This document shows positions 28,375 through 51,504 of a DNA stretch of 64,000 nt, piece by piece. The notes under the pieces were generated by a model. That model did not search any database. It was not told where the DNA came from and worked only from the letters and a program-made list of their open reading frames with translations. How positions within the stretch are numbered: the stretch's first letter is position 1; the number at the start of each line of letters is the position of its first letter. The position numbers were made by a program, and so were the translations under genes. This stretch comes from an uncultured Actinomycetota bacterium (GTDB lineage: Bacteria; Actinomycetota; Actinomycetes; Mycobacteriales; Mycobacteriaceae): positions 18,401-82,400 of the forward strand of contig CAVQSK010000029.1 in the NCBI GenBank assembly GCA_963715885.1, written 5' to 3'.

Positions 28375-29178
28375 TCAGCTATCTCGCGCTGCCACCGCGG
28401 CGAGATCGGCTGCGAGGCTGACGAGCTCAGGTTGGATGCCCGGGACGGCCGCCATGGCTCCGGTCGACTCCAAGTTGAGCGGGGCGCCCGCGTAGTCGGT
28501 GCATATCGCTCCCGCCGCGCGAGCGATCGCATGCCCGGCGACGACGTCATACGGGTTGTTATGGGCAAGCACCATGCCCTGGATCTGGCCGCTGACAAGC
28601 CAGGCCCAGAGCACCGACGCTGCGCCGACGCAGCGAAAGCGCAGCGCCCGTCGGTGCACGCTCATCGTCAGTTCGAGATACGCGTCCAGCCGGGGGCCGC
28701 CCCGGTGGAACGCGTCGCCCATCCCGATGATTGCGTCCTCGAACGAGCCAACGTCGGCCAGCGCACCGGAGTCGACTCGAACGCCGAGGAACGGCAGGTC
28801 GATCACGCCCACTGTCGGCACGCCCTCCTCGAGCAGGCCGAGCATCACTCCGCACAGCGGTGACCCGGTCGCGTAGTTGATAGTCCCGTCGAGCGGATCC
28901 GCGACCCAGACCTTGCCCGAGTCGAGGGCGGCCCCGCCGCCCTCTTCGCCGTAAAAGCCGATATCCGGAGTGGATGTCGCGAGCGAGCGCTGCAGCGCCG
29001 ACTCACTGGCCAGGTCGACGTCGGTAAGGAAGTCCTTGGCCGCCTTGTCGATCCGCTCGTGCGGCCGATCACGCCTGTCCCGCAGGATCGCGACCGCTTC
29101 GTCCACCGCGGCGTGCGCTGCCGCCAGCTCTTCCCTCACGCGGGCATCGTAGTTCCGCACTCGTCGTCCCAGCACCAC
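28375..29178 (-). CDS. Inositol monophosphatase family protein
   Basis: DFLTDVD, GEEGG, WVADPLDGTINY, PYDVVAG. Confidence 0.88.
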   Translation of the reverse strand: MVLGRRVRNYDARVREELAAAHAAVDEAVAILRDRRDRPHERIDKAAKDFLTDVDLASESALQRSLATSTPDIGFYGEEGGGAALDSGKVWVADPLDGTINYATGSPLCGVMLGLLEEGVPTVGVIDLPFLGVRVDSGALADVGSFEDAIIGMGDAFHRGGPRLDAYLELTMSVHRRALRFRCVGAASVLWAWLVSGQIQGMVLAHNNPYDVVAGHAIARAAGAICTDYAGAPLNLESTGAMAAVPGIQPELVSLAADLAAVAARDS

Positions 29179-29223
29179 CTGACGCTCGGCTCTTGGCTAT
29201 TCCGGCGGTCCCCTAGATCACTC

Positions 29224-29281
29224 TTGACAGCAGATGTGCGCTAGGTCACACTATCAGACGTCAGACGTCAGACGTCAGACG
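29224..29281 (+). promoter_or_regulatory. SigA-like promoter plus 4x TCAGACG direct repeat
   Basis: TTGACA at 29224, 17 bp, CACACT at 29247; (TCAGACG)4 at 29254-29281. Confidence 0.65.
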
Positions 29282-29294
29282 AAAGGGTGAAGCT

Positions 29295-29997
29295 GTGGCG
29301 CTTCCCGAGGAACTCGCGGACATGCTTCTCGAGTCAATCGTGGACGGGCAGTTTCCAATCGAGTCGGTCCTCCCCTCGGAGGGGGAATTGGCCCTGAAAT
29401 ACGGGATGAGCCGATTGACTGTCCGCGAAGCGGTGCGCATCTTGCGGGCGCAGAACATCGTGACCATTCGTCGCGGGCGCGGCACCTTCGTCAACCAGCC
29501 GCAGGCGTGGATGTCGCTGGATGCTGTCGTGCGGGTCGAGAGACGCCGGTCGCCCACAGCGCGGGTATCGGGACGCCTGATCGAGGCGAGGCGGATGGTC
29601 GAGGTCGGGGCAGCGCAGTTGGCGGCCACCAACCGGTCGAAGGAGGATCTCGACTCACTGGCCGCCAGCATCGAAGAAATGCGACTTGCCAATGGGTTGA
29701 ACCGGGTCGATCTCTTTGTCGAGGCGGACATCGCCTTTCATGACGTGATCATGCACGCGACCGCAAACATGTTCATTCCCTTCATGTTTGAGCCGTTCGG
29801 CAATCTGCTGGTCAATGCCCGCACCGAGACATCATCAATCCCGGAGATCCAGGTCAACGCAATCGCTGCACACGAAGCAATTCTCGAGGCACTCACCGCC
29901 GGTGCATCCCGAGCGCAGTCGCGACGCCATGGAGGCACACATGAATCAAACCGAAGCCGATCTGCGCCGATACGTCCTCGACGCCGATCAGCGCTGA
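29295..29997 (+). CDS. FadR/GntR-family regulator, +1 frameshift near 29905
   Basis: LPSEGELALKYGMSRLTVREAV, ADIAFHDVI; expected tail RDAMEAHMNQT lies in the next frame. Confidence 0.85.
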
Positions 29998-30081
29998 CCC
30001 GCGGCGTCATCCCAGTCGGAGAAACGAAATGACGATCACCCGCCCGACCGAACCCACCCCGGCCACTTTGAGCTGTACCTG

Positions 30082-30946
30082 ATGCTGCTCACTGGCACCG
30101 AAACCCTGCACCTCGCCGCTAAACAGGGGTGGGCTCTGCCCGCGTTCGCGGTCTACAACCTGGAGATGGTCCAGGCGGTTGTGACCGCCGCCGAAGAGGC
30201 CGACCGACCCGTGCTCCTCCTCGCGGGGTCGAGTCACTTCCAACATGCCGGTCAGACAGCGCTGATGAACATGGCGCTGACTGCAGCGGACTCAACGTCA
30301 GCCGCGATCGGCGTGCATCTGGACCATTGCAGGGACCTGCCGGAAATGCAGCGCTGCCTCGACGCCGGCTACTCGTCGGTGATGATTGACGGCTCGCATC
30401 TGAGCTTCGACGACAATGTCCGGTTCACGCATCAGGCGGCCACACTCGCCCATCGCGCCGGTGCCTGGATCGAGGCCGAACTCGGCGCAGTGCCGGGGGA
30501 CGAGGACGTCTCCACGAATGCACTTCCGTCGCAGAGCATGACCGACCCGCGCCAGGCGCGCGAATTTGTCGAGCGTACCGAGATCGATGCGCTGGCAGTG
30601 GCGGTCGGCAACGTGCACGGATTCACCGCCGACCCGATCACCCTCGATCTGGAACGGCTCAACGCTATTGCGGAGCAGTGCCCGGTTCCCCTGGTCCTGC
30701 ATGGCGCGAGCGGACTGCCGGCCGGACAGCTTCGGGGCGCCCTCAGTTGTGGTGTTGCCAAAGTCAACGTCAACGCTGAATTGCGCCGCGCCTACCTCGT
30801 CGCAGTCGAACGCTCACTACCGCAGGCGATGTCGAACGCCGACGCCGTCGCGGTATGGAGGGCGGGACGCGCCGCCGTCACGGCCGCGGCGCTACGAACC
30901 ATCGACTCGTTGTCACCTCAACCTGCGAAACACCAAGCACCAATGA
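30082..30946 (+). CDS. Class II fructose/tagatose-bisphosphate aldolase (end uncertain; reads in frame into glpX as assembled)
   Basis: [42 protein letters not shown]. Confidence 0.88.
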
Positions 30947-30987
30947 GCACGTTCGACCGCGCATGCACACTCCAGAAAGGCACCACC

Positions 30988-32029
30988 ATGGCTACCCCGC
31001 TGGACACCACGCTTTACATGCGCCCGGATCGCAACCTGGCCCTGGAGTTGGTGCGAGTCACCGAGGCCGGCGCGATGGCGGCCGGCCGCTGGGTGGGCCG
31101 CGGCGACAAGGAAGGCGGCGACGGTGCCGCCGTCGACGCGATGCGCCAACTCGTCTCCTCGGTGTCGATGCGCGGTGTGGTCGTCATCGGCGAGGGTGAA
31201 AAAGACGAAGCGCCAATGCTTTACAACGGCGAAGAGGTCGGCAACGGGCTGGGCCCGGATTGCGACTTCGCCGTCGATCCCGTCGACGGGACCACGCTGA
31301 TGGCCAAAGGGTTGCCGAACGCGATCTCAGTCCTCGCGGTGGCCGAACGCGGCGCGATGTTCGACCCGTCGGCGGTGTTCTACATGGACAAGATCGCCGT
31401 GGGTCCGGACGCCGCCGACGCCATCGACATCACCGCACCCATCTCGGAGAACATCCGCAGCGGTGGCCAAGGCGAAGAAGTCCTCGGTGTCCGATCTGAC
31501 GGTGTGCATTCTGGATCGCCCCCGCCATGCTGAGTTGATCGCGCAGGTCCGCGAGACCGGCGCGCGGATCAGGCTGATCTCCGACGGCGACGTCGCCGGC
31601 GCGATCGCCGCGGCGCGGCCGGAATCGGGTACCGACCTGCTGATCGGAACCGGTGGAACACCCGAAGGCATCATCGCCGCGGCCGCGATGCGCTGCATGG
31701 GGGGAGCACTGCAAGCCCGTCTGGCGCCCACCGATGACGCCGAACGCCAGAAGGCGATCGACGCCGGCCACGACCTCGACCGCATCCTGTCCACTGAAGA
31801 CCTGGTCTCGGGTGACAACGTGTTCTTCACCGCCACCGGCGTCACCGACGGTGATCTGTTGCGCGGTGTCCGCTACAGCGGCGGTGGCGCCCACACCCAG
31901 TCGATCGTGATGCGGTCCAAGTCGGGCACCGTCCGCGTCATCGAGGCCTACCACCGCCTCGACAAACTCCGCGAATACGCCAGCATCGACTTCACCGGCG
32001 ACGACAACGCACCCGCCCCGATGCCATGA
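30988..32029 (+). CDS. glpX: Class II fructose-1,6-bisphosphatase GlpX, +1 frameshift near 31459
   Basis: [53 protein letters not shown]. Confidence 0.9.
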
Positions 32030-32699
32030 AGCCACCCCGCATCACCGCCCAATACGGCTGGCCTTCGCCCCCGGGAAAGACCTGTCCTCGACGGGGGTCT
32101 GTTTCGATGAGCCGGCGAGGCCGTTGGGGTTCAACACAATTGACTGCTGGATCTGTTGGCAGCGGATTGGCTGCGCTCTCGCCTCGTGCGGCAGTCACTC
32201 GTGATTCGCGTTTATCTCCGGTGCAGAAATTCCTCCGATGCGTCGATAAGACATGTTCGGGACTGCCAAATGTGTCGGGCCGTTTCGCCAGGCCAAGCAG
32301 CGCGGTTGATCTGTCGCGCAGGCACTTTGCGGGTCGAAATGGGGTGCCCATCGCTCTCGGCTTCGGCGCGGTCACGCCGCCCGTCGTCGGTCCATCTCTC
32401 TTTGCTCGCCGCCCTGATCGTGGAGCGGCCGCGACCACGAAGATCAGCCGTTTCCGACGGGTTCGGAGTATTGACATGGCGTACGCCGAGGAGTTGCCTG
32501 ATGAATAGCTGAATAACCAGCCGGCCTTGGGCCGGTGTCGTCCCCGAACTGGCAGCGGCACCGCGAAAACGTATGCCGCCCATGAATTATTCGTAGACCT
32601 CAAGAGACAACTACGCCGCCTTGCGGCCCGCATCGTCTATGCCGTCCCTACCGCCTATTTTGTCCCCGTTTTTCGCCCCTCTCATGATTGGAGGCTGTT

Positions 32700-34140
32700 A
32701 TGGCCAGATCCCGAACGCCCGTCGATTCATTAGGTGAATTAGGTGATCGCACGATCCGCAAGGTCAAGCGGCGGGTATTGCCGCTGATCGTTTTTCTGTA
32801 CTTCATCGCGTTCCTCGATCGGAACAATGTTGGCTTCGCGAAGCTGACGATGAGCGAGGACATCGGCCTCAGCGCTTCCGCTTACGGGTTGGGCGCCGGG
32901 ATCTTCTTCATCGGGTACGCCATCTTCGAGATCCCCAGCAACGCCGGCATGGTGCGGTTCGGTGCCCGCAAGTGGATCGCCCGGATCCTGGTGACGTGGG
33001 GCTTCTTCGCCACGGCTATGGCGGCAGTGACGGGCGAGACCTCTTTCTACATCATCCGGTTCCTGCTGGGCGCCGCGGAGGCCGGGTTCTTCCCGGCGAT
33101 CATCCTGTATCTGACCATGTGGTTCCCTGCCCGCCAACGGGTCGCGGTGCTGGGGATCTTCATTCTTGCCCAGCCGATCGCCAACGCGATCGGCGCGCCG
33201 ATCTCGGGCCTGCTGTTGAAGATGGACGGCATCTGGGGTCTGGCCGGTTGGCAGTGGATGTACATCATCGAGGGTGTTCCCGCGATGCTGATGGCCTTTG
33301 TGGCGCTGAAGGCAATGACGGATTACCCCAGGGATGCGATGTGGCTGACCCTCGAGGAACGCACATGGCTGCAGGACAAGATGGACGCCGAGGACGCGGC
33401 CAAGGGGACCGGGCACAAGCACAGCTTCATGGCCGGTCTGAAGGACCCCCGCTCCTTGATCTTTGCGGCCCTGTACTTCGGTCTGGTGATGGGCATCTAC
33501 GGGCTGAGCCTGTGGCTGCCGTCCATCGTCAAGGCCATGGGTGACCTGTCGAACACACAGGTCGGGTTCATCGTCCCGATTCCGTATGTGTGTGCCGCGC
33601 CGTTCGTCTGGTTCTGGAGCCGGCACTCGGACCGCACCGGTGAACGCGTCGGTCATACCTCGGGGGCGATGTTGCTGGGCGCCGTCGGGCATGGTCGCCT
33701 CCGGGTTCCTGATCCAGTCCAGCCCAGTCCTGGCGTTGGCCGCGATCTGCGTCGCCGCAATGGGTATCTTCGCGGCGATCTCACCGTTCTGGGAGCTTCC
33801 GGCCGCCGCTTTGGCCGGGGCGGCAGCGGCGTCGGGCATTGCGCTGATCAACTCGCTGGGCAACCTGGGCGGGTTCGTCTCGCCGTACGCGGTCGGTGTG
33901 TTGGTCGACAAGACCGGTGATTCGAAGTACGGGTTGCTGATGTTGGCCGCGGTGTTGTTCATCACCGCCACCGCCACCTTCCTGTACGGCCGGACGATCC
34001 ACGCCGGGAAGGTGCCGACCGGCTCGCACGAGGACCTGCTCGCCAAGGAGGTGGCCGCCTTCGACCTCGCCGCCGAAGAACTGCACCACCGGGGCGACCC
34101 GGACATCCCACCCACTACTCCACGAGAGAAGACACCGTAA
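32700..34140 (+). CDS. MFS transporter (ACS/tartrate-type), +1 frameshift near 33688
   Basis: DRNNVGFA, GAGIFFIGY..FEIPSN, RFLLGAAEAGFFP; C-half INSLGNLGGF in the next frame. Confidence 0.88.
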
Positions 34141-35859
34141 TGGCGACGTGCCGATCCCAACAGTGGTACGCCGGGCCGGACCCGCGGAACAACTACCTGC
34201 ACCGCGCGTGGATGCGCCGCGGGGTACCGGACCACGCCTTCGACGGCCGCCCACAGATCGCCATCGCCAACACCGCCTCCGACTTGACGCCGTGCAACGC
34301 GCACTTCGACGAGGTCGCTGTCAGCGTCAAACAGGGCGTGTACGAGGCCGGTGGAATTCCGCTGAACCTGCCGGTGATGTCGCCGGGGGAGACGCAGATG
34401 CGGCCCACCGCGATGCTGTGGCGGAACCTGGCGGCGATGTCGATCGAGGAAGTGTTGCGCGGCAACCCCGTCGACGGGGTGGTCCTGCTGGGTGGTTGTG
34501 ACAAGACCATCCCCGCGCTGCTGATGGCCGCGGCCTCGGTGGACTTGCCGGCCCTTGTGCTGCCGGGCGGTCCGATGCTGACCGGGCATTTTCGGGGAGC
34601 GGCACTGGGCTGCGGCACGGACGTGTGGCGCTTCGGTGAGGAGGTCCGCGCCGGTCTGATGTCCCAGGAGGACTTCCGCAAGTCCGAATCGGGGATGATC
34701 CGCAGCAAGGGGCACTGCAACACGATGGGCACCGCCTCGACGATGGCCGTCATGGCCGAGGCGCTGGGGACAACGATCCCCGGAGTCGCCGGCACCCCCG
34801 CCCCGGACAGCCGGCTTCTCGAGCACGCCCACGCCGCCGGCCGGTTGGCGGTGGAGATGGTCCAGGCAGCAGCGGCGGCTCAGCGACGTCATCACGCTCG
34901 CGTCGTTCCACAACGCGATCGTCGCGTTGGCCGCCACCGGAGGATCCACCAACGCAGTCGTACACCTGCTGGCGATCGCCGGGCGGCTGGGGATCGAGCT
35001 GCGGCTGGAGGACTTCGACCGGATCGGTTCCACGGTGCCGCTGCTGGTGAACGTTCAACCTGCCGGCACGTACCTGATGGACGACATGCACCGGGCCGGT
35101 GGGCTTCTCGCTGTCCTCGGGGAGGTGAAGGACCTGCTCGACCCGACCGCCGTGACCGTCACCGGCCGGTCGCTGACGGACTACCTCGGGGACGCCCAGA
35201 TCTGGGACGAGGACGTCATCCACCGCCGGAACGCCCCGCTGATGGACAACGCCGGCATCGCGGTACTCCGGGGCACCCTGGCGCCCAACGGCGCAGTGAT
35301 CAAACCGGCTGCCGCGTCGAAGGATCTGCTGGTGCACCGGGGCCGGGCGGTGGTGTTCGACAGCATCGAGGACTTCCACGCCCGTATCGACGACCCCGAC
35401 CTGGACATCGACGAGACCTGCGTGATGGTGCTGCGCGGTTGCGGACCCAAGGGATATCCAGGTATGCCGGAGGCCGCGAACACCCCACTGCCGGCCAAGC
35501 TGCTCGCCGCCGGTGTTCGGGACATGATCCGGATCTGTGACGGCCGGATGAGCGGCACCGCCTACGGCACCGTCGTGCTGCACGTGGCGCCGGAATCGGC
35601 TGCGGGCGGGCCGCTTTCACTCGTCCGCGACGGCGACATGATCAGCCTGGACGTCCCCGGCAGGCGGATCGACCTGGATGTGCCCGCCGAGGAATTGCAG
35701 CGCCGTCAACCCTCGCCGGCGGCGGCGGCCTCCTATTGCGCGCCGCTGCGGGGCTGGCAGCAGTTGTACGTCGACCACGTGATGCAGGCCGACCGGGGAG
35801 TGGATCTGGACTTCCTCGTCGGCTCCAGCGGCGACACCGAGACCCGCGATTCGCACTAG
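34140..35859 (+). CDS. IlvD/Edd-family sugar-acid dehydratase, +1 frameshift near 34867
   Basis: PCNAH, GGCDKT, CNTMGTASTM, GGSTNAV, GPKGYPGMPE, DGRMSGTAYG. Confidence 0.9.
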
Positions 35860-35899
35860 CGATGATCGCGACGACTTATTCGATAGCCGACCCGGAGTA

Positions 35900-36777
35900 G
35901 TGATGTCTGAGCCCACCACCCTTCTTTCCGCTGTCCCAGTACCCTTTGACACCGACGGTGACCTGGACGTCAAGGGCCAGGAGACGCTGCTGCGCCACCT
36001 GAAGGACACCGGCATCGCCGGCGTGTTCATCGCCGGCACCACCGGGGAATTCACCGCGCTGGACGACGACGAGCGAGCCGTAGTCCTCGCGCGTCGCGCT
36101 CGAGGTGTACGGAGCGGATGCGGTGTACATCCACGTCGGCGCCGCGGCCGCCCGGCAGGCCGAAAAACTCACCGCCCAGGCCGTTGCGCTCGGTGCTCGG
36201 AACCTCGCCGCGATCACCCCGTACTACCTGCCGGCCGGCCCCGCGGCCTTGATCGACTATTACCGCCGGTTGGACGCCGTCGCCGGTAGCGCCCGGATGT
36301 ACATCTACCTGTACGCCGCCCGGACCGGCAGCACCGTCACGCCCGGACCAACTCGCCGAACTAGCCACGATTCCGTCCGTCGCCGGGGCGAAGATCAGCG
36401 GTGAACCGACATCCTGTGTGCGGCAATATGTTCGGGCAGCCCCAGACGACTTCGAGGTGTACTGCGGCAACGACATCGAATTCGGCGACTTCGTTCGCGC
36501 CGGCGGCACCGGTGCGGTGTCCGGGGTCTCCAGTGTCTTCCCGCGACCATTCCTGGACATGGCAGATGCGCTGCACCGCAGTGACGACCAGGCGGCCGCC
36601 GCGGCGCAGGACCGCATCAAACAGGCCGTCGAAGCCGCCAACGGGGCCGACATCGCTCTGCTCAAGGCGGGCCTGTCCCTCCAAGGCCTCCCGGCAGGTC
36701 CGACCCGGGTTGCGCTCGACAAGCCAACTCCCGCGCAGCTGGAAACCCTGCGCACCGCAGTCCAGGACCTGACATGA
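35900..36777 (+). CDS. DHDPS/NAL-family class I aldolase, two +1 frameshifts (near 36092 and 36344)
   Basis: GTTGEF, TPYY, IYLY, GAKISG (Schiff-base Lys) across three frames. Confidence 0.8.
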
Positions 36778-36895
36778 CAACATCTACCCGCCAACGGAAC
36801 TCGTCCCCGTCGCCGCGAAACCTATTCCTGGACAGGGTAATTCCCACGATGCATCTCTGTCCGATGAACATTCCCACCGGAAGGCAGCCCCTCTC

Positions 36896-37666
36896 ATGAG
36901 TTCTCCACTCCCGACCGAGCGCACCGCCGTCGTCACCGGCGGCGCATCACCCCGCGGCATCGGCCGGGCGACCGCCGACCGGCTGGCCCGCGACGGGTGG
37001 TCCGTGGCGATCCTGGACATCGACGAGGGCGCCGCCAAACTCGCGGCCGCCGAGCTGGCCGACAGGTACTCGGTATCCACCCTCGGTGTCGGCGCCGACA
37101 TCTCCGACGAGAACTCGGTGCAAGAGGCCATCGCGCAGGTCGAGTCAGCCCTGCCGCCAATCATCGGGCTGGCCAATATCGCCGGGGTCAGCTCACCGAC
37201 CGAATTCATGGACGTCACACCGGCCGAGTGGGACCGGGTGTTCAACGTCAACATGCGCGGCACATTTCTGGTCACCCAACGCGTTTTGCCCGCAATGATC
37301 GATGCCGGGGTCGGCCGGATCGTCAGTGTCTCCTCCATCTCCGCGCAGCGTGGTGGCGGGACGTATTCGAAGGTGCCCTACAGCGCGTCCAAGGCGGCCG
37401 TGATCGGGTTTTCGCGGGCATTGGCCCGGGAGATGGGCCCGCACAACATCACGGTGAACTCCGTGGCCCCCGGGCCGATCGACACCGAGATCATGGGTGG
37501 CACGCTGACCGACGAGCGCAAGGCGCAGATGAGCGCCGACATCCTCCTGGGCCGGGTCGGCACCGTGCAGGACGTTGCCGCCCTGCTGACCTTCCTGATG
37601 AGTGAGGACGCCGGCTACATCACCGCGGCGACGTACGACATCAACGGCGGCCTGCAAATCTCATGA
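36896..37666 (+). CDS. SDR oxidoreductase
   Basis: TGGASPRGIG, NIAG, YSASK, PGPIDT. Confidence 0.9.
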   Translation: MSSPLPTERTAVVTGGASPRGIGRATADRLARDGWSVAILDIDEGAAKLAAAELADRYSVSTLGVGADISDENSVQEAIAQVESALPPIIGLANIAGVSSPTEFMDVTPAEWDRVFNVNMRGTFLVTQRVLPAMIDAGVGRIVSVSSISAQRGGGTYSKVPYSASKAAVIGFSRALAREMGPHNITVNSVAPGPIDTEIMGGTLTDERKAQMSADILLGRVGTVQDVAALLTFLMSEDAGYITAATYDINGGLQIS

Positions 37667-37694
37667 CTTTCTTTACCCAACCCGAGGAGCTGGG

Positions 37695-39157
37695 ATGACC
37701 GCGAAGATCTCCGACACCCACCGCCCGTCCGCCGAGGAAGTCCTCGCCGCCTCGCCGCCAGTGCGGCACGAACCCGCTGCGCGGGAACATATCAGGGCCG
37801 CTCACACCGCGGCCGGTCGGCGGATCGCCGCCCTCGACGACGACCCCACCGGCTCGCAGACGGTGCACGACGTCTCGGTCGTCACCGTGTTCGAGGATGC
37901 CGAATACGCGGCCGCTCTTGCCGAACCCGGTTCCACCTGCTTCGTGCTGACCAACACCCGCAGCCTGCCCGAGGACGCGGCGGTCGAACTCACCAGCCGC
38001 GTCGCCGGCAGCCTGTTCACGCTCGGGGAGACCCTGGGCGCACCCGTCGAGGTGGTCAGCCGCAGCGATTCCACCCTGCGCGGCCACGTCCTCGCCGAGA
38101 TGCAGGCCATCGACGCCGCCCGCCGCCGGGTCACCGGCACCGGATTCGACGGCGTGTTGCTGGTGCCCGCCTACTTCGAGGCCGGCCGGTTCACCGCCGG
38201 TGACATCCATTGGGCCAACGTGGCCGGGGAACCGGTTCCGGTCGGCGACAGCGAGTTCGCCAAGGACGCCACCTTCGGCTACACCTCGTCCAACCTGCGG
38301 GAATTCGTCGCCGAGAAAAGCAACGGCACGATCACCGCGGACCAGGTCCACTCCATCTCGCTGACCGACATCCGCGAGGGCGGACCCGACCGGGTCGCCG
38401 ACATCCTCGCCGCGGTCACCGGCGGCGCGTTCGTCGTGGTCAACGCCACCGACTACGCCGACCTGGAGATCGTCGTCCTCGGCGGGCTTCAGGCACAGGA
38501 GCGGGGCAAGTCGTTCGTATACCGGTGTGGTCCTTCGTTCCCCCGTGCTCTGGCCGGGCTCGAACCTCAAGGCCCGCTCACCGCGGCCCAGATCTGGCCG
38601 ACCGGTCGTCCGGGCGGCCAGGGGCTCGTTGTCGTCGGTTCGCATGTTGGCCTGACCAGCCGGCAGGTCGCCAAGGCGCAGGAACGTGGCGGGCTCACCG
38701 AAACCGAACTGCGACGTCCCGACCCTGCTGGATCCCGACCGGCGCGACGCCCACGTCGCCGCCATCGGGCAGGCAGGTCATCGAGGCCCTCGCCACCTCC
38801 GATGTGCTGCTGTTCACCAGCCGTACCCTGATGCGCGGCGGCGACGCCGACGACAGCCTCGCCATCTCCCGCAACGTCTCCACCGCGGTCATCGAGGTCG
38901 TCCAGGCCGCACTCGCCGCGCACCCGGCATGGGTCGTCGCCAAAGGCGGCATCACCTCCCACGACGTCGCGGTCCGTGGCCTCGGCATCCGGCGCGCCGA
39001 GGTCGTCGGCCAACTGTTCCCCGGCATGGTGTCGGTCTTCCGCCCCATCGAGGCGGCACCCGAAGCCGTCGGTATCCCTTACGTCGTGTTCGCCGGCAAC
39101 GTCGGTGACGACAACAGCCTCGCCGACGTCGTCGACCTCTTCGCCGGACGGCGATGA
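37695..39157 (+). CDS. Four-carbon acid sugar kinase (DUF1537/OtnK-like), two +1 frameshifts (near 38711 and 38773)
   Basis: LDDDPTGSQT, TNTRSL, SRSDSTLRGH, VVGSHV, KGGITSHD, FAGNVG. Confidence 0.85.
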
Positions 39158-39206
39158 CCCCTCCGGCACCTCGCTCAATCCACCACTCGCAGAAGGAAAT
39201 AACGAT

Positions 39207-40094
39207 ATGACGAACGTCGGATGGATCGGTCTGGGAGCCATGGGTTCTCCCATGGCATCTTTCGTCGCGAAGGCCGGACACGCGGTCACGGCCTTCGATA
39301 TCGACCCGCAGAAGGCTGCGGCCCTAGCCGGTGACGGCGTCAAATCCGCGGCCACCGTCAGTGACGCGGCGGTCGACGCCGATGTGCTGGTGTTGATGGT
39401 CGCCACCGCCGAGCAGGCCGAATCGGTGCTTTACGGGGACGGCAAGGCCGCCGCGGCACTCAAACAGGGCAGCGTCGTGCTGCTGATGGCCACGGTCGGA
39501 CCAGCAGCCGTCGAGGACTGGGCACGGCGCCTGGCCGTGACCGGCGTGCAGATCGTCGACGCGCCGGTGTCCGGGGGTGCCGCTAGGGCCGGGCAGGGTG
39601 ATCTGCTGATCATGGTCAGCGGCTCGGAGACCGCGCTGGCCACGGCGCAACCGTTGCTGGACGTGATGGCCCGCAATGCCCCCGTCGTCGGCACGGAACC
39701 CGGGGACGGGCAGAAGGTCAAACTCGTCAACCAGTTGCTGTGCGGCGTGCACATCGCGGTCGCCGCGGAGGCCCTTGCCTACGCCGAGGCGCTCGGCCTG
39801 GACGCCGGTGAGACCTGGGAAGTGCTCCGGCACGGCGCGGCCGCATCGTTCATGCTCGACGACCGCGGTGCCCGGATGATCGACAATCCGAACAACGACA
39901 TCCGTTCCGCCATAGACATTTTCGTCAAAGACATGGGCCTGGTCATCGAAGCGGCCCGCGCGAAGGCATACCCCACCCCGCTGGCCTCCGCGGCTGAACA
40001 GCTCTACCTCGCCAGCCGCCGCGCCGGCCTCGGACGCGCCGACGACTCCTCCGTCATCCAGGTCCTGCGCGGCACCGCCACCGCGTCGACCTGA
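39207..40094 (+). CDS. NAD(P)-dependent beta-hydroxyacid dehydrogenase (LtnD/3-HIBADH family)
   Basis: IGLGAMG, DAPVSGG, KVKLVNQLL, IFVKDMG. Confidence 0.88.
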   Translation: MTNVGWIGLGAMGSPMASFVAKAGHAVTAFDIDPQKAAALAGDGVKSAATVSDAAVDADVLVLMVATAEQAESVLYGDGKAAAALKQGSVVLLMATVGPAAVEDWARRLAVTGVQIVDAPVSGGAARAGQGDLLIMVSGSETALATAQPLLDVMARNAPVVGTEPGDGQKVKLVNQLLCGVHIAVAAEALAYAEALGLDAGETWEVLRHGAAASFMLDDRGARMIDNPNNDIRSAIDIFVKDMGLVIEAARAKAYPTPLASAAEQLYLASRRAGLGRADDSSVIQVLRGTATAST

Positions 40095-40179
40095 CGACGG
40101 CACGGATGCCCACCTGAGTCGGTCCCCTCGACGTCTGCGCAATGCCTTCGACCAACAGGAGCTAACAGGAGGAAAAAAT

Positions 40180-40971
40180 ATGTCCGATTCGACCGACTAC
40201 ACGTCGTTGTTCCGGCTCGACGGCCGCAAGGTTGTCGTCGTCGGTGGCGGCAGCGGGCTTGGCCGGGCCGCCAGCATCGCGCTGGCGCAGTACGGCGCCA
40301 ATCTGGTGGTCGCCGATGTCAACGTGGAAGGTCTGAAGGACACCGTCGCGGAGATCGAAGCGCAGGGCTACAGCGCCGAATCCACCGAAATCGACGTCAC
40401 CGACACCGAATCCGTCGTCGCTCTGGCGGCCGCACATCCCGATACGGAGGTTCTGGTGGCCACACCCGGGATCAACGTGCGCAAGCAGGTACTGGACACC
40501 ACTGACGACGAGTTCGACCGGGTCATCGACGTCAGCCTCAAAGGCACCTACCGGCTCGCCAAGGCGTTCGGGCCGGGACTTGTCGCCCGCGGCAAGGGCA
40601 GCATCATCAACTTCTCCAGCTTCCGCGCGCTGGTCGTCGAGCCGGGTCAGGGGCTGTACGCCGCCGCCAAAGGTGGGGTGCTGCAATTGACGAAGGTCCT
40701 GGCGGCCGAACTCGGTCCGTTCGGTGTGCGGGTGAACGCCGTCGCACCCGGCCCGTTCGAGACACCGCTGACGCAGCAGATCAAGTCCGATCCCGACTGG
40801 TACGGCGCCTACGCGGACAAGACCGCGTTGAAGCGCTGGGCCACGCCCGACGAGATCGTCGGCGCGATACTGTTCCTGGCATCGGACGCATCCACGTTCG
40901 TGACCGGCACCCTGCAGTTGGTCGAAGGCGGATGGACCGCCGTCGACGGCCGCTTCGTCCCTAAGGTCTAA
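40180..40971 (+). CDS. SDR oxidoreductase (gluconate 5-dehydrogenase-like)
   Basis: GGGSGLG, YAAAK, PGPFETPL. Confidence 0.88.
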   Translation: MSDSTDYTSLFRLDGRKVVVVGGGSGLGRAASIALAQYGANLVVADVNVEGLKDTVAEIEAQGYSAESTEIDVTDTESVVALAAAHPDTEVLVATPGINVRKQVLDTTDDEFDRVIDVSLKGTYRLAKAFGPGLVARGKGSIINFSSFRALVVEPGQGLYAAAKGGVLQLTKVLAAELGPFGVRVNAVAPGPFETPLTQQIKSDPDWYGAYADKTALKRWATPDEIVGAILFLASDASTFVTGTLQLVEGGWTAVDGRFVPKV

Positions 40972-42723: not shown

Positions 42724-44728
42724 TTACGTTTGCCCTAGCCTGAAGGGACCAACGATGCCGCCTGCCAAATGAGGGCTGTTATCCGAAGGCAAGGGCCATA
42801 TCGGCCCCGCCGAGGGGAGCGACTCGGCAACCATGGCGGACTCGCCAGTTGATGCCTCCTCGGTATCTGGCGCAATGACGGCGGGATCGATTCGGAGAAC
42901 CGCGTAGCCCGCAACTGCGCCGGCACCGAATCCCGGGGCGAAGACCCGGGTCGGCTTGGTGATCACTTGATCGCGGACCGCGTCGTGGATTGCCAGCGGA
43001 ATGCTCGCCGAGGAGGCATTGCCCACCCGCTCGATGTTGAAATACAGCTGATCCGGGGACAGACCGGCGGCCTTTGCCAGGTCGATCACCATGGTCTTGT
43101 TGGCCTGGTGCGGGATGATCAGTTCGATGCTGGCCAGCAGCGACTCTGCGTCCCCATCCGGGTCGGGCAGGGCCCTGATGTCGTCGAGCATCTGCATGAG
43201 GTAGCGCCCGGCGAGCGCCTTGACCTCCGGGCCGTAGACCGTGATGTTGTTGGCGAACGCGGGGTTGGGCCACAGGATCGAGTTGACCTGGCTGGTCGGA
43301 CCGCTGGCATAGGTCTGCATGTACTCGATATCCGGCGGCGAACCCTCGGGCGCGACGCCGAGGACAATGGCGGACGCGCCGTCGCCGAAGATCATCCGGG
43401 ACGGCCGGACGTTGCCGATCTTGTTGGAGAACTTTTCCGCGCACACCACGAGCACCGGCCGCCGCACCAGCTGGAGAATTCTCGTGGCCTCGGCCAGCCC
43501 GTAGCTCAGGCCGGCGCACGCGGCGACGAGGTCGAACGAGCAGTGGGTCTGCTGGATGCCCAACTGGCCGGAGAGCCAGGTCGCGACCGACGGTATCAGC
43601 CGATCGCTGGTGCAGGTGCACACGATAACCGCGCCGACCTGGTCTGGACCCACCTGAGCGTGAGCCAGCGCCGACCGGGCGGCCCGCAACGAGATGTCCT
43701 CGAGGCTGTCGGCGGTGTAACGGCGCGCCTCGATGCCGGTCTTGGCACTGATCTCGTCGGCTGACATGGGCGACCAGTTGTAGGCACTGTTGCGGATCAG
43801 GTCCTCGTTGGTGCACACCCGTTCACCGTGCACTGCGGCGATGGCCTCGATGCGAGGTTGCACTGCCAAATCCTGGCGCACGTTGAGGGCGGGGTAGGGC
43901 CGAATGGGCGCGTGAACCTCGGGGGCGACCGTGTGGGTCTTCTTCGGGGCGGGCCCCGAAGCGACGCGGGACAGAAACTGGTGGACATCAAGATCACGCG
44001 GATGGAACACCACCACGTAGTCGTCGTCGCGCAACTCTCCGACAGGGACCAGGGCGGCCTCGCTACGCGACCACGGGTACTGGTTGTGCAGGACCATCGA
44101 CCAGCGGCGCAGCGCCTCCAGCTCGGCCACATCCTCGTTGCAGTCGATGATCTCGGCGTAGCTGTACCGGCGGAAGTCGGGGTCATATCGATTCAGCCGC
44201 AGAGTTTGATTAGCGGGGTCAGACAGCAGATCGGCAACCGTGGGTACCACGGCCGACAGCTTGGTCGCGTGGTTCTTACGATGGCCGAACACGTCGAAGA
44301 GGATCTCGAAGATGCTGTCCTCGACCTCGGCGTCCCACTGCGCCGCAAGACCCGGATAGGCAGACTGCACCGCGGTCACCTTCGTTTCGCGATCTTCCCA
44401 CGGCGTCTGGATGGGGATGTAGATGTCGTCGCGGCTACGCGGCACGTCGGCCCACCGGGTGGGCCGGACGTCGTACATCGTTAGTTTGTAAGCGGTTGGC
44501 CCAGAACAGGTTGAGCGCCATGTCCCGCATCAGTTCGAACTTGCTTTGATAGGCGCCGGTCTTGATCCGCTCGAGGATATCGCTCCCCGTGGGCGCCTTG
44601 GAATCGAAGTCCCGCCGGACGACCGCGTCGAGCTGCTCGAGGCTTTCGAAGGTGGAGAAGTCGAGATCAGGAAAACAATTGGCGGGAAAAACGATCTTGC
44701 CATGCTTGTTGATTTCGAAGGACTGCAT
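42724..44728 (-). CDS. Ketoacyl-ACP synthase III-like protein with long N-terminal extension, +1 frameshift near 44491
   Basis: AACAG (Cys), IPHQAN (His), GNASSASIP (Asn). The 97-aa upstream ORF joins as NRYKLTMYDVRP if one base is removed. Confidence 0.82.
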
Positions 44729-51079: not shown

Positions 51080-51504
51080 CAGAACCGCTCCGCCATGTGC
51101 ATGCCGATCACACCCAGCGCCGGGATGAAGACCGCCAAAAAGACGCCGACCACGATCCACAGCATCACCCGCTGATAGCGCGGGCCATGCTGCCAGAAGT
51201 CGATCAGGATGATCCGGATGCCGTTCAGCCCGTGGTAGAGCACCGCGACGACCAACCCGATCTCCATCAACCCGACCAGCGGCGTCTTGTACGTCTCGAT
51301 GACTTCGTTGTAGGCCTGCGGACTGACCCGCACCAGCGCGGTGTCCAGCACGTGCACGAACAGGAAGAAAAAGATCGTCGCCCCGGTAATGCGGTGCAGC
51401 ACCCACGACCACATACCGGGATCACCGCGATAAAGGGTGCGCCGAGGCGACGGTTTGGTTCGCGGAGCCGGTACCGCCGGACTCGCGGGTGTCGCAGTAC
51501 TCAT
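51076..51504 (-). CDS. sdhC: Succinate dehydrogenase cytochrome b556 subunit
   Basis: YRGDPGMWSWVLHRITG, HVLDT, YHGLNGIR. Confidence 0.92.
   Translation of the reverse strand: MSTATPASPAVPAPRTKPSPRRTLYRGDPGMWSWVLHRITGATIFFFLFVHVLDTALVRVSPQAYNEVIETYKTPLVGLMEIGLVVAVLYHGLNGIRIILIDFWQHGPRYQRVMLWIVVGVFLAVFIPALGVIGMHMAERFW

Follow-up and report, generated by a model that had tools for sequence, protein, structure and literature searches.

The gene cluster at positions 28375-40971 of a 64,000-nt stretch of contig CAVQSK010000029.1, from an uncultured actinobacterium (the whole stretch is referred to as the window), is probably a modular sugar-acid island whose core corresponds to the published three-step route of tetronate catabolism. 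The core comprises an LtnD-like dehydrogenase of the HIBADH family, a DUF1537 kinase and a class II aldolase-family protein (PF01116), and sequence comparisons support the placement of the locus as a rare, modular member of this known pathway family in the genome of a Mycobacterium-like soil bacterium. A Pfam scan of the open reading frames (ORFs) recovers within the cluster every family that an earlier note on this DNA had named. Additionally, with every ORF in the cluster accounted for, none encodes OtnI, a PF00596-type OtnC, PdxA (including PdxA2) or a RuBisCO-like protein, as that note had also stated.

According to PMC12540250, the three-step bypass of Arthrobacter sp. ZBG10 proceeds in vitro from LtnD through 2-OtnK and 2-OtnC to dihydroxyacetone phosphate (DHAP) (Guo, Shen, Zhang and Huang 2024, BBRC 695:149440), and Watanabe et al. 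2026 (PMC12994016) describe the same route; as these two papers summarise it, the pathway also occurs beyond ZBG10 and begins with LtnD or DenD. The cluster is like the ZBG10 route in having the same three Pfam families in one place with neither OtnI nor a PF00596 decarboxylase, and its kinase and aldolase are, like the Arthrobacter enzymes, of the types homologous to the plant protein LTD. The earlier note had taken the route to be undescribed, on a list of known DUF1537 tetronate routes from which the three-step one was missing; the enzymes match an already described pathway. It had also proposed a sequence of oxidation, phosphorylation and aldol cleavage, of which the first two steps fit the published route, whereas the last is described in both sources (PMC12540250 and PMC12994016) as a decarboxylation of 2-oxo-tetronate 4-phosphate to DHAP and not as an aldol cleavage.

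The core proteins are related to the three domain types of plant LTD

The LtnD-like dehydrogenase gene (39207-40094, plus strand) is intact and encodes an NAD_binding_2 together with an NAD_binding_11 domain; among NCBIfam models its product scores best on NF043037 (L-threonate dehydrogenase), with 277 bits against a cut-off of 350 bits. The kinase gene (37695-39157, plus strand), of the "DDDPTGSQ" subtype and carrying a DDDPTG motif, is the sole DUF1537 gene of the 6.97-Mb genome. Its SBD_N domain and its NBD_C domain lie in two frames in the window, with +1 insertions at 38713 and 38767, and in intact relatives the full-length protein has 486 aa. No sequence match to the kinase was found in the PDB. 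The aldolase-family protein ("FBA2"; Pfam F_bP_aldolase, 271 bits) is encoded at 30082-30990 on the plus strand, 6.7 kb upstream of the kinase.

When longer proteins related to the kinase were sought, the matches included LTD (At1g18270) of Arabidopsis thaliana, a protein of 1373 aa with two PF03446 domains, DUF1537 and PF01116, together with LTD proteins of other land plants. As laid out in PMC12540250, this "ketose-bisphosphate aldolase class-II family protein" unites LtnD, OtnK and OtnC modules in the order LtnD1-LtnD2-OtnK-OtnC. All three window proteins are 38-41% identical to the matching domains: the dehydrogenase shares 41% identity with the second LtnD domain (LtnD2), the kinase 38-39% over 91% of its length (E about 1e-80) and the aldolase 41% with the C-terminal domain (E 8e-44), whereby the DDDPTG motif is common to both kinases and the HxDH, NVHG and LHGASG metal-site motifs of the aldolases align. 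On these comparisons, each of the dehydrogenase, kinase and aldolase is supported as a homologue of the matching domain type in the plant HIBADH-DUF1537-aldolase fusion, in agreement with the earlier note's statement that the parts mirror the plant protein. Unlike in LTD, the three are separate genes here and the window has a single dehydrogenase domain. That note had further offered the cluster as a new bacterial model for the plant enzyme; the plant link is already the premise of Yamamoto et al. 2025, as PMC12540250 states.

Fusion forms of this kinase subtype also occur outside plants (proteins P0121, P0123-P0129, P0202 and P0225). Fungal HIBADH-HIBADH-kinase fusions of about 1120 aa have no aldolase domain, bacterial in-frame kinase-PF01116 fusions are found in P0202, P0225 and locus L027 (392-2448), and one 857-aa protein, at 69% identity, joins the kinase to a glycerate kinase.

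In a maximum-likelihood tree, the window aldolase groups with kinase-adjacent (Kribbella, L032) and kinase-fused (L027) aldolases, with support of 82/84, and the plant LTD domains, P0202 and P0225 fall into the same unresolved group. The four PF01116 paralogues of its own genome, including the FbaA-like one on contig C25, as well as E. coli GatY and FbaA, lie elsewhere in the tree. In line with this placement, 2-OtnC of ZBG10 has precisely the F_bP_aldolase domain (PF01116), according to PMC12540250. We therefore treat the window protein as a candidate 2-oxo-tetronate-4-phosphate decarboxylase of the 2OtnC type.

E. coli YgbK (3OtnK) shows no significant BLASTP similarity to plant LTD. A four-step tetronate route, LtnD/DenD-OtnI-OtnK-OtnC, is reportedly encoded by E. 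coli ygbJKLM and is said to have been described by Zhang and colleagues in PNAS in 2016. The cluster would share with it an LtnD-type first step to 2-oxo-tetronate, the kinase superfamily and DHAP as the end product, but it differs in having neither OtnI nor a PF00596 OtnC and in that its kinase lacks BLASTP-level similarity to the YgbK type. Specifically, tblastn searches with E. coli OtnI, OtnC and OtnK find no match in the cluster, and the OtnI and OtnC queries match only other contigs, at 28-31% identity. The cluster also contains no AP_endonuc_2 ORF, and OtnI-like genes are confined to contigs C4, C12 and C16.

The kinase neighbourhood points to 2-oxo-tetronate as substrate

The genome neighbourhood of the kinase, to which the earlier note had pointed as a check, was analysed across 80 loci of this kinase type by a related-locus search, tblastn and de novo clustering of neighbours. 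The loci come from a scan of one genome per species, and almost all belong to Actinomycetota. A HIBADH gene is the usual neighbour of the kinase and adjoins it in most loci; in 21 of the 80, the neighbour is an extended short-chain dehydrogenase/reductase (SDR) that scores as DenD, a D-erythronate dehydrogenase, at the equivalog level (NF043036, 430 bits vs a cut-off of 325 bits). E. coli-type OtnI or OtnC is found near none of the 80 kinases. Because LtnD and DenD both yield 2-oxo-tetronate and the isomerase is absent near the kinase, the DUF1537 kinase is best read as a 2-oxo-tetronate kinase.

The intact gene directly upstream of the kinase (36896-37666, plus strand; Pfam adh_short_C2) encodes a classical, FabG-like SDR, here SDR1. 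In 22 loci the gene beside the kinase is a classical SDR, in 21 it is DenD, and the two are never found together. This mutual exclusion suggests, allowing for the shared ancestry of the loci, that SDR1 fills the DenD role and is a candidate D-erythronate dehydrogenase. We also considered SDR1 as an SDR-type L-threonate 3-dehydrogenase. This assignment is unsupported: the best PDB matches of SDR1 are FabG-type structures, and the Ltn3D relative 4DYV lies outside the top 60.

Other kinase loci differ in composition. At two Arthrobacter loci (L022 and L066), the kinase is 66-68% identical to that of the window and no PF01116 gene lies within 10 kb. At these two and at L013, L016, L052 and L076, an AP_endonuc_2 protein, a fused Dak1-Dak2 kinase, a 3HCDH-family dehydrogenase, an SDR and a second major facilitator superfamily (MFS) transporter stand beside the kinase and LtnD gene. 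This set resembles the D-ribonate/erythrulose route of M. smegmatis (Rib2D-OrnI-DerK), and tetronate and ribonate modules appear to travel together; the AP_endonuc_2 and Dak genes adjoin the kinase in the Arthrobacter loci and not in this window. Loci L060-L074 (Rothia, Kocuria, Brachybacterium and Luteococcus) are compact, with a minus-strand GntR gene, a GntP permease, the kinase and an LtnD-like gene, often with a 3HCDH-family dehydrogenase or DenD upstream, and without a lyase.

The cluster is a rare and modular accessory island

Seven loci (L011-L014, L016, L021 and L028) have the gene order of the window in common, with nucleotide identities of 85-93%; parts of the cluster are also carried by two short contigs (L015 and L017). 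All of these come from metagenome-assembled genomes (MAGs) of Actinomycetota or Mycobacterium. Because the same order recurs in at least seven MAG loci, the cluster is not a chance juxtaposition. L028 and L012, in which all genes are intact, served as references for protein length (kinase, as given above; dehydratase, 572 aa; lyase, about 290 aa; MFS transporter, about 483 aa; GlpX, 346 aa).

A comparison at the DNA level with 24 sampled genomes of the genus did not find the cluster; only the housekeeping glpX gene matched. By protein search, 12 of the 200 genomes sampled from the genus have the kinase, and in about seven of these it is an orthologue at 78-100% identity. The content of the syntenic loci varies: only L013 and L028 have the PF01116 gene, L014 lacks the dehydratase, L021 lacks glpX, dehydratase and lyase, and L011 has glpX at the other end of the cluster. 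The cluster is thus a rare, modular accessory island, present in about 6% of the sampled genomes of the genus. The window as a whole (1-64000) is a mosaic whose segments match dispersed sites, both in genomes of the same genus and in cluster-bearing MAGs; it carries second copies of housekeeping-type genes, glpX among them, which is consistent with an accessory island.

Eight frameshifts interrupt the cluster as assembled

Relative to all of the five to seven syntenic relatives compared, the cluster has eight single-base insertions, at 29905, 31459, 33687, 34870, 36090, 36341, 38713 and 38767; the base is missing from seven relatives at 29905 and at 33687, from six at 31459 and from five at 34870. 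The frameshifts, which the earlier note had flagged, are therefore real features of the assembled sequence. They break six of the 11 genes, namely gntR, glpX, the MFS gene and ilvD/edd once each, and the DHDPS-family lyase and kinase genes twice each. The IMPase-family gene, SDR1, the dehydrogenase and SDR2 are free of insertions, and the aldolase domain is intact too. Of the three-step enzymes, the dehydrogenase and the aldolase domain are therefore intact and the kinase, with its two insertions, has no full-length ORF. As assembled, the operon is predicted to be non-functional and cannot work.

The odds are about even between real recent decay and a local consensus error. In the latter case, for which we would give the same chance as for its opposite, the extra bases would be errors confined to a few patches (through low coverage, strain mixture or unpolished long-read bridging), and the operon of the organism would be intact and working. 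All eight events are insertions, with no deletion among them; none lies in or extends a homopolymer of three or more bases; and dropping each extra base restores full-length frames that are 85-97% identical to L028 and contain no nonsense codon. A spectrum of insertions only, outside homopolymers and free of nonsense codons, points to an artefact of the local consensus. In addition, window-specific substitutions still favour the third codon position (20, 19 and 45 at positions 1, 2 and 3), and two more patches of the genome, at C33:125-130 kb (L139) and C38:2-6.5 kb (L138), are likewise dense in 1-bp indels, most of them insertions, when compared with relatives at 86-90% identity.

On the other side, damage is concentrated in dispensable sequence. 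A frame hidden Markov model (HMM) based on GC content at the third codon position (GC3) yields 98-182 candidates in 6.97 Mb, equivalent to 0.18-0.33 per 12.6 kb, vs 2-4 in this 12.6-kb cluster; with four events against 0.27 expected, the density is about 15 times that of the genome. In the flanking coding DNA, about 9.4 kb could be set against relatives (80-91% identity), and no disruptive frameshift was found there. The C33 and C38 patches are likewise accessory operons (Opp-type ABC transporter, Rieske oxygenases, ferredoxin reductase and GMC oxidoreductase), and the confinement of damage to dispensable operons points to real decay. Mycobacterial end-joining by Ku and LigD adds single nucleotides and could give such an insertion-only spectrum naturally. 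The third-position share of the window-specific substitutions is 0.54, compared with 0.60-0.69 per relative, so constraint on the cluster is only mildly relaxed.

Other explanations for the frameshifts did not hold. Genome-wide sequencing noise is rejected by the frame-HMM counts given above. Poor quality of the whole window is rejected as well: the apparent +1 events at 44489 and 54198 lie at or before gene starts, the one at 51178 is an event in a relative, and genes on the flanks align in single frames. GC-related coverage loss is unsupported, the GC content of the hot spots being ordinary, and a mixed-haplotype consensus, in which the extra base would be the union of two haplotypes, fits two of eight sites vs 7-13% expected by chance, which is not significant. 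The frame-HMM also flags contig C4 near 377.5 kb.

The last step and the second GlpX

Several observations weigh against the three-step reading. The functions of the enzymes here and in close relatives are predictions from sequence. The sub-cut-off score of the dehydrogenase places it in the L-threonate-dehydrogenase type at the family and not at the equivalog level, and the kinase matches no NCBIfam equivalog (57 bits to D-threonate kinase). Orthology to the ZBG10 enzymes is drawn indirectly, through the shared relationship to LTD, and the support for the aldolase clade is moderate. No substrates can be assigned to the two SDRs, the IMPase-family protein and the dehydratase branch. Five of the seven syntenic relatives lack the aldolase, so its step is possibly not obligatory, and no orthologue of it was found in the whole genomes of three of these aldolase-less relatives, where the best match is 30-40% identical.

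The distribution of the aldolase bears on which enzyme makes DHAP. A PF01116 gene is nearby in only about nine of the 80 kinase loci, and in most of them, near-identical clusters without a genomic PF01116 orthologue included, the kinase is paired only with LtnD and/or equivalog-level DenD. The last step could therefore be performed by another enzyme. The DDDPTG kinase might then usually work without a dedicated lyase or decarboxylase; a housekeeping class II aldolase or an unrecognised enzyme would make DHAP, GlpX, the IMPase-family protein and the SDRs may help, and the FabG-like SDR may have displaced DenD in mycobacterial and Arthrobacter clusters. We put this forward tentatively and consider it rather unlikely. 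Given the absence of the aldolase, the alternatives are that another class II aldolase acts, that the step is in part non-enzymatic, or that the kinase product has a different fate. If the reading without a dedicated last enzyme and with an SDR in place of DenD is true, tetronate catabolism would have a variant of its first and last steps that is so far undescribed.

Directly downstream of the aldolase, glpX (30988-32029, plus strand) encodes a class II fructose-1,6-bisphosphatase (FBPase), with its FBPase_glpX match split over two frames by the +1 insertion at 31459. It is the second copy in the genome, at 81% amino acid identity to the housekeeping copy on contig C21, and its L028 orthologue is an FBPase at the equivalog level (370 bits on TIGR00330, over the cut-off). 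The simplest role for glpX beside a route that yields DHAP is gluconeogenic. The catalytic domain of the aldolase is followed by a variable, stop-less 3' tail that runs in frame into the glpX ATG at 30988. Without the insertion at 31459, the window would encode an aldolase-FBPase fusion of roughly 650 aa (30082-32029); in L028 and L013, aldolase and glpX lie in different frames and overlap, and the tail of the aldolase is unconserved.

The arrangement of the two genes allows a further reading, in which the PF01116 protein and GlpX are a gluconeogenic fructose-bisphosphate aldolase/FBPase pair that is co-induced with a DHAP-yielding pathway, while another enzyme (a housekeeping or a paralogous class II aldolase), or a partly spontaneous reaction, forms DHAP. 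The in-frame junction of the two ORFs, the close similarity of the cluster glpX to the housekeeping FBPase, the scarcity of PF01116 genes beside the kinase, the retention of glpX in the five aldolase-less relatives and the three genomes with no aldolase orthologue anywhere are all in its favour. However, the aldolase groups with kinase-adjacent and kinase-fused aldolases and with the LTD domain, and not with the FbaA-like C25 protein or the other paralogues, and the domain reported for 2OtnC is the same. We regard this reading as distinctly unlikely and retain the PF01116 protein as the candidate decarboxylase of the three-step route.

A dehydratase-lyase branch and the remaining enzymes

An IlvD/Edd-family sugar-acid dehydratase resembling L-arabinonate dehydratase (34140-35859, plus strand; ILVD_EDD_N and ILV_EDD_C in two frames, +1 at 34870) is followed by a lyase of the DHDPS/NAL family, a candidate 2-keto-3-deoxy-acid aldolase (35900-36777, plus strand; DHDPS fragments in two frames, +1 at 36090 and 36341). 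This order resembles that of a Dahms-type pathway, and both genes are frame-broken in the window. The L028 orthologue of the dehydratase reaches 829 bits with NF004784, over the cut-off of 539, and 755 bits with the L-arabinonate dehydratase model NF009559, whose cut-off is 882. The read-through of the lyase is 85% identical to the intact 292-aa L028 orthologue and reaches no NCBIfam equivalog. Because dehydratase and lyase are absent from some otherwise identical clusters, we read them as a putative separate, optional branch.

The parallel dehydratase branch of the earlier note is retained in this form, with a precedent in clusters that combine C4, C5 and C6 acids. In PMC12994016, C4 genes beside non-phosphorylative C5/C6 genes in Paracoccus and Roseovarius are presented as a "metabolic funnel" for acids of common (ascorbate) origin. 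The window is like these clusters, and like the YjhG/YjhH pair, in that tetronate genes accompany an IlvD/Edd dehydratase and a DHDPS-family lyase follows the dehydratase. Unlike it, the Paracoccus/Roseovarius funnel is of the four-step type and includes the SDR Ltn3D, whereas the window is of the three-step type and has no aldehyde dehydrogenase. The D-ribonate route of M. smegmatis is ruled out as an explanation of the branch, since that route (Rib2D-OrnI-DerK) has no IlvD-type dehydratase.

SDR2 (40180-40971, plus strand; Pfam adh_short_C2) is intact and resembles polyol and gluconate-5-dehydrogenases; its best PDB matches are galactitol dehydrogenase and gluconate 5-dehydrogenases, and it follows the dehydrogenase gene in six syntenic loci. 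A DUF2252 gene, an inconstant neighbour in relatives, comes after SDR2. At the other end of the cluster, the gene for an IMPase-family phosphatase (28375-29139, minus strand; Pfam Inositol_P, 133 bits) is intact and divergent from gntR. Its top NCBIfam model is HisN, at 110 bits far short of the 275-bit cut-off; it is 90% identical in amino acid sequence to L028 without indels, and its position beside gntR is kept in syntenic loci.

The presence of a pentonate/hexonate-type dehydratase, a gluconate-5-dehydrogenase-like SDR, an acid-sugar MFS transporter and two phosphatases would also suit a single pathway for an ascorbate- or pectin-derived acid, in which the kinase and the two SDRs act on C5/C6 keto-acid sugars and an aldolase-type cleavage of the phosphorylated keto acid is followed by dephosphorylation by GlpX or the IMPase-family protein. 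The kinase has no characterised equivalog match, which leaves room for this; moreover, according to PMC12994016, Ltn3D, 3OtnK and 3OtnC act in vitro on gluconate, and C4-route enzymes can show promiscuity for C5/C6 acids. Nevertheless, the conserved partners of the kinase over the 80 loci, LtnD-like proteins and equivalog-level DenD, are both tetronate-specific; the presence of dehydratase, lyase, aldolase and glpX varies among near-identical clusters, which marks them as separable modules; and SDR1 is FabG-like and not close to 4DYV. A single C5/C6 pathway is quite improbable on these grounds, and the tetronate core with an optional branch is the reading that we carry forward.

Regulator, transporter and intergenic sequence

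The GntR/FCD regulator gene (29295-29997, plus strand; Pfam GntR and FCD) has its +1 insertion at 29905, near the 3' end. As assembled, its ORF continues to 30032; the read-through is 89% identical to L028 and stop-free. A tandem heptamer, GTCAGAC in four copies (GT-N3-AC; 29253-29283, plus strand), ends 12 nt before the gntR start. The copies form three GACGTC palindromes, and relatives vary there by indels. The repeats may be a putative GntR operator, or a microsatellite. An operator common to the whole cluster is rejected, as within the cluster the repeat occurs only before gntR.

The MFS gene (32688-34140, plus strand; Pfam MFS_1, +1 at 33687) encodes an acid-sugar transporter of the D-galactonate-transporter subfamily, whose L028 orthologue scores 312 bits on TIGR00893. 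It is separated from glpX by a spacer of 658 nt (32030-32687), in which about 430 nt (32044-32471) are without a counterpart in syntenic relatives, where blastn alignments break, and are unique in their own genome. The spacer holds an ORF without a Pfam match and has no match in Rfam. No Rfam match was found that would indicate an RNA element in the spacer or rRNA at 48-51.5 kb, and both were rejected.

Discussion

We propose the following working model for the cluster. The GntR/FCD repressor probably controls the cluster, and the MFS transporter would import L-threonate and/or D-erythronate. The LtnD-like enzyme would oxidise C2 to give 2-oxo-tetronate, with SDR1 probably in the role of DenD, as family membership and genome context suggest. 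The DUF1537 kinase would then phosphorylate C4, in keeping with its homology to the LTD kinase domain and with the DenD/LtnD neighbourhood, and the PF01116 protein would convert 2-oxo-tetronate 4-phosphate to DHAP and CO2, as reported for Arthrobacter 2OtnC. The second GlpX may carry the DHAP-derived carbon into gluconeogenesis. The IlvD/Edd dehydratase and DHDPS-family lyase could form the optional branch, a non-phosphorylative one of the Dahms type that would turn a C5/C6 (or C4) acid into pyruvate and a small aldehyde.

In contrast to the ZBG10 route, the cluster also contains a second glpX, the IMPase-family gene, both SDRs and the dehydratase/lyase pair; a classical SDR stands in for DenD, the aldolase is an optional gene in close relatives, and the kinase and five other genes are frame-broken. 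The cluster thus offers neither a new pathway nor a new model for the plant enzyme, both of which are already in the literature. It would extend the three-step route to Mycobacterium-like actinobacteria and indicates that the island can join an extra FBPase and a pentonate-type dehydratase branch. The more useful lead may be that, for most kinases of the DDDPTG subtype, no partner for the last step can be recognised.

The copy carried by this genome may be dead. L-threonate is a main breakdown product of plant ascorbate, and soil bacteria that feed on it contribute to the turnover of carbon around plants.

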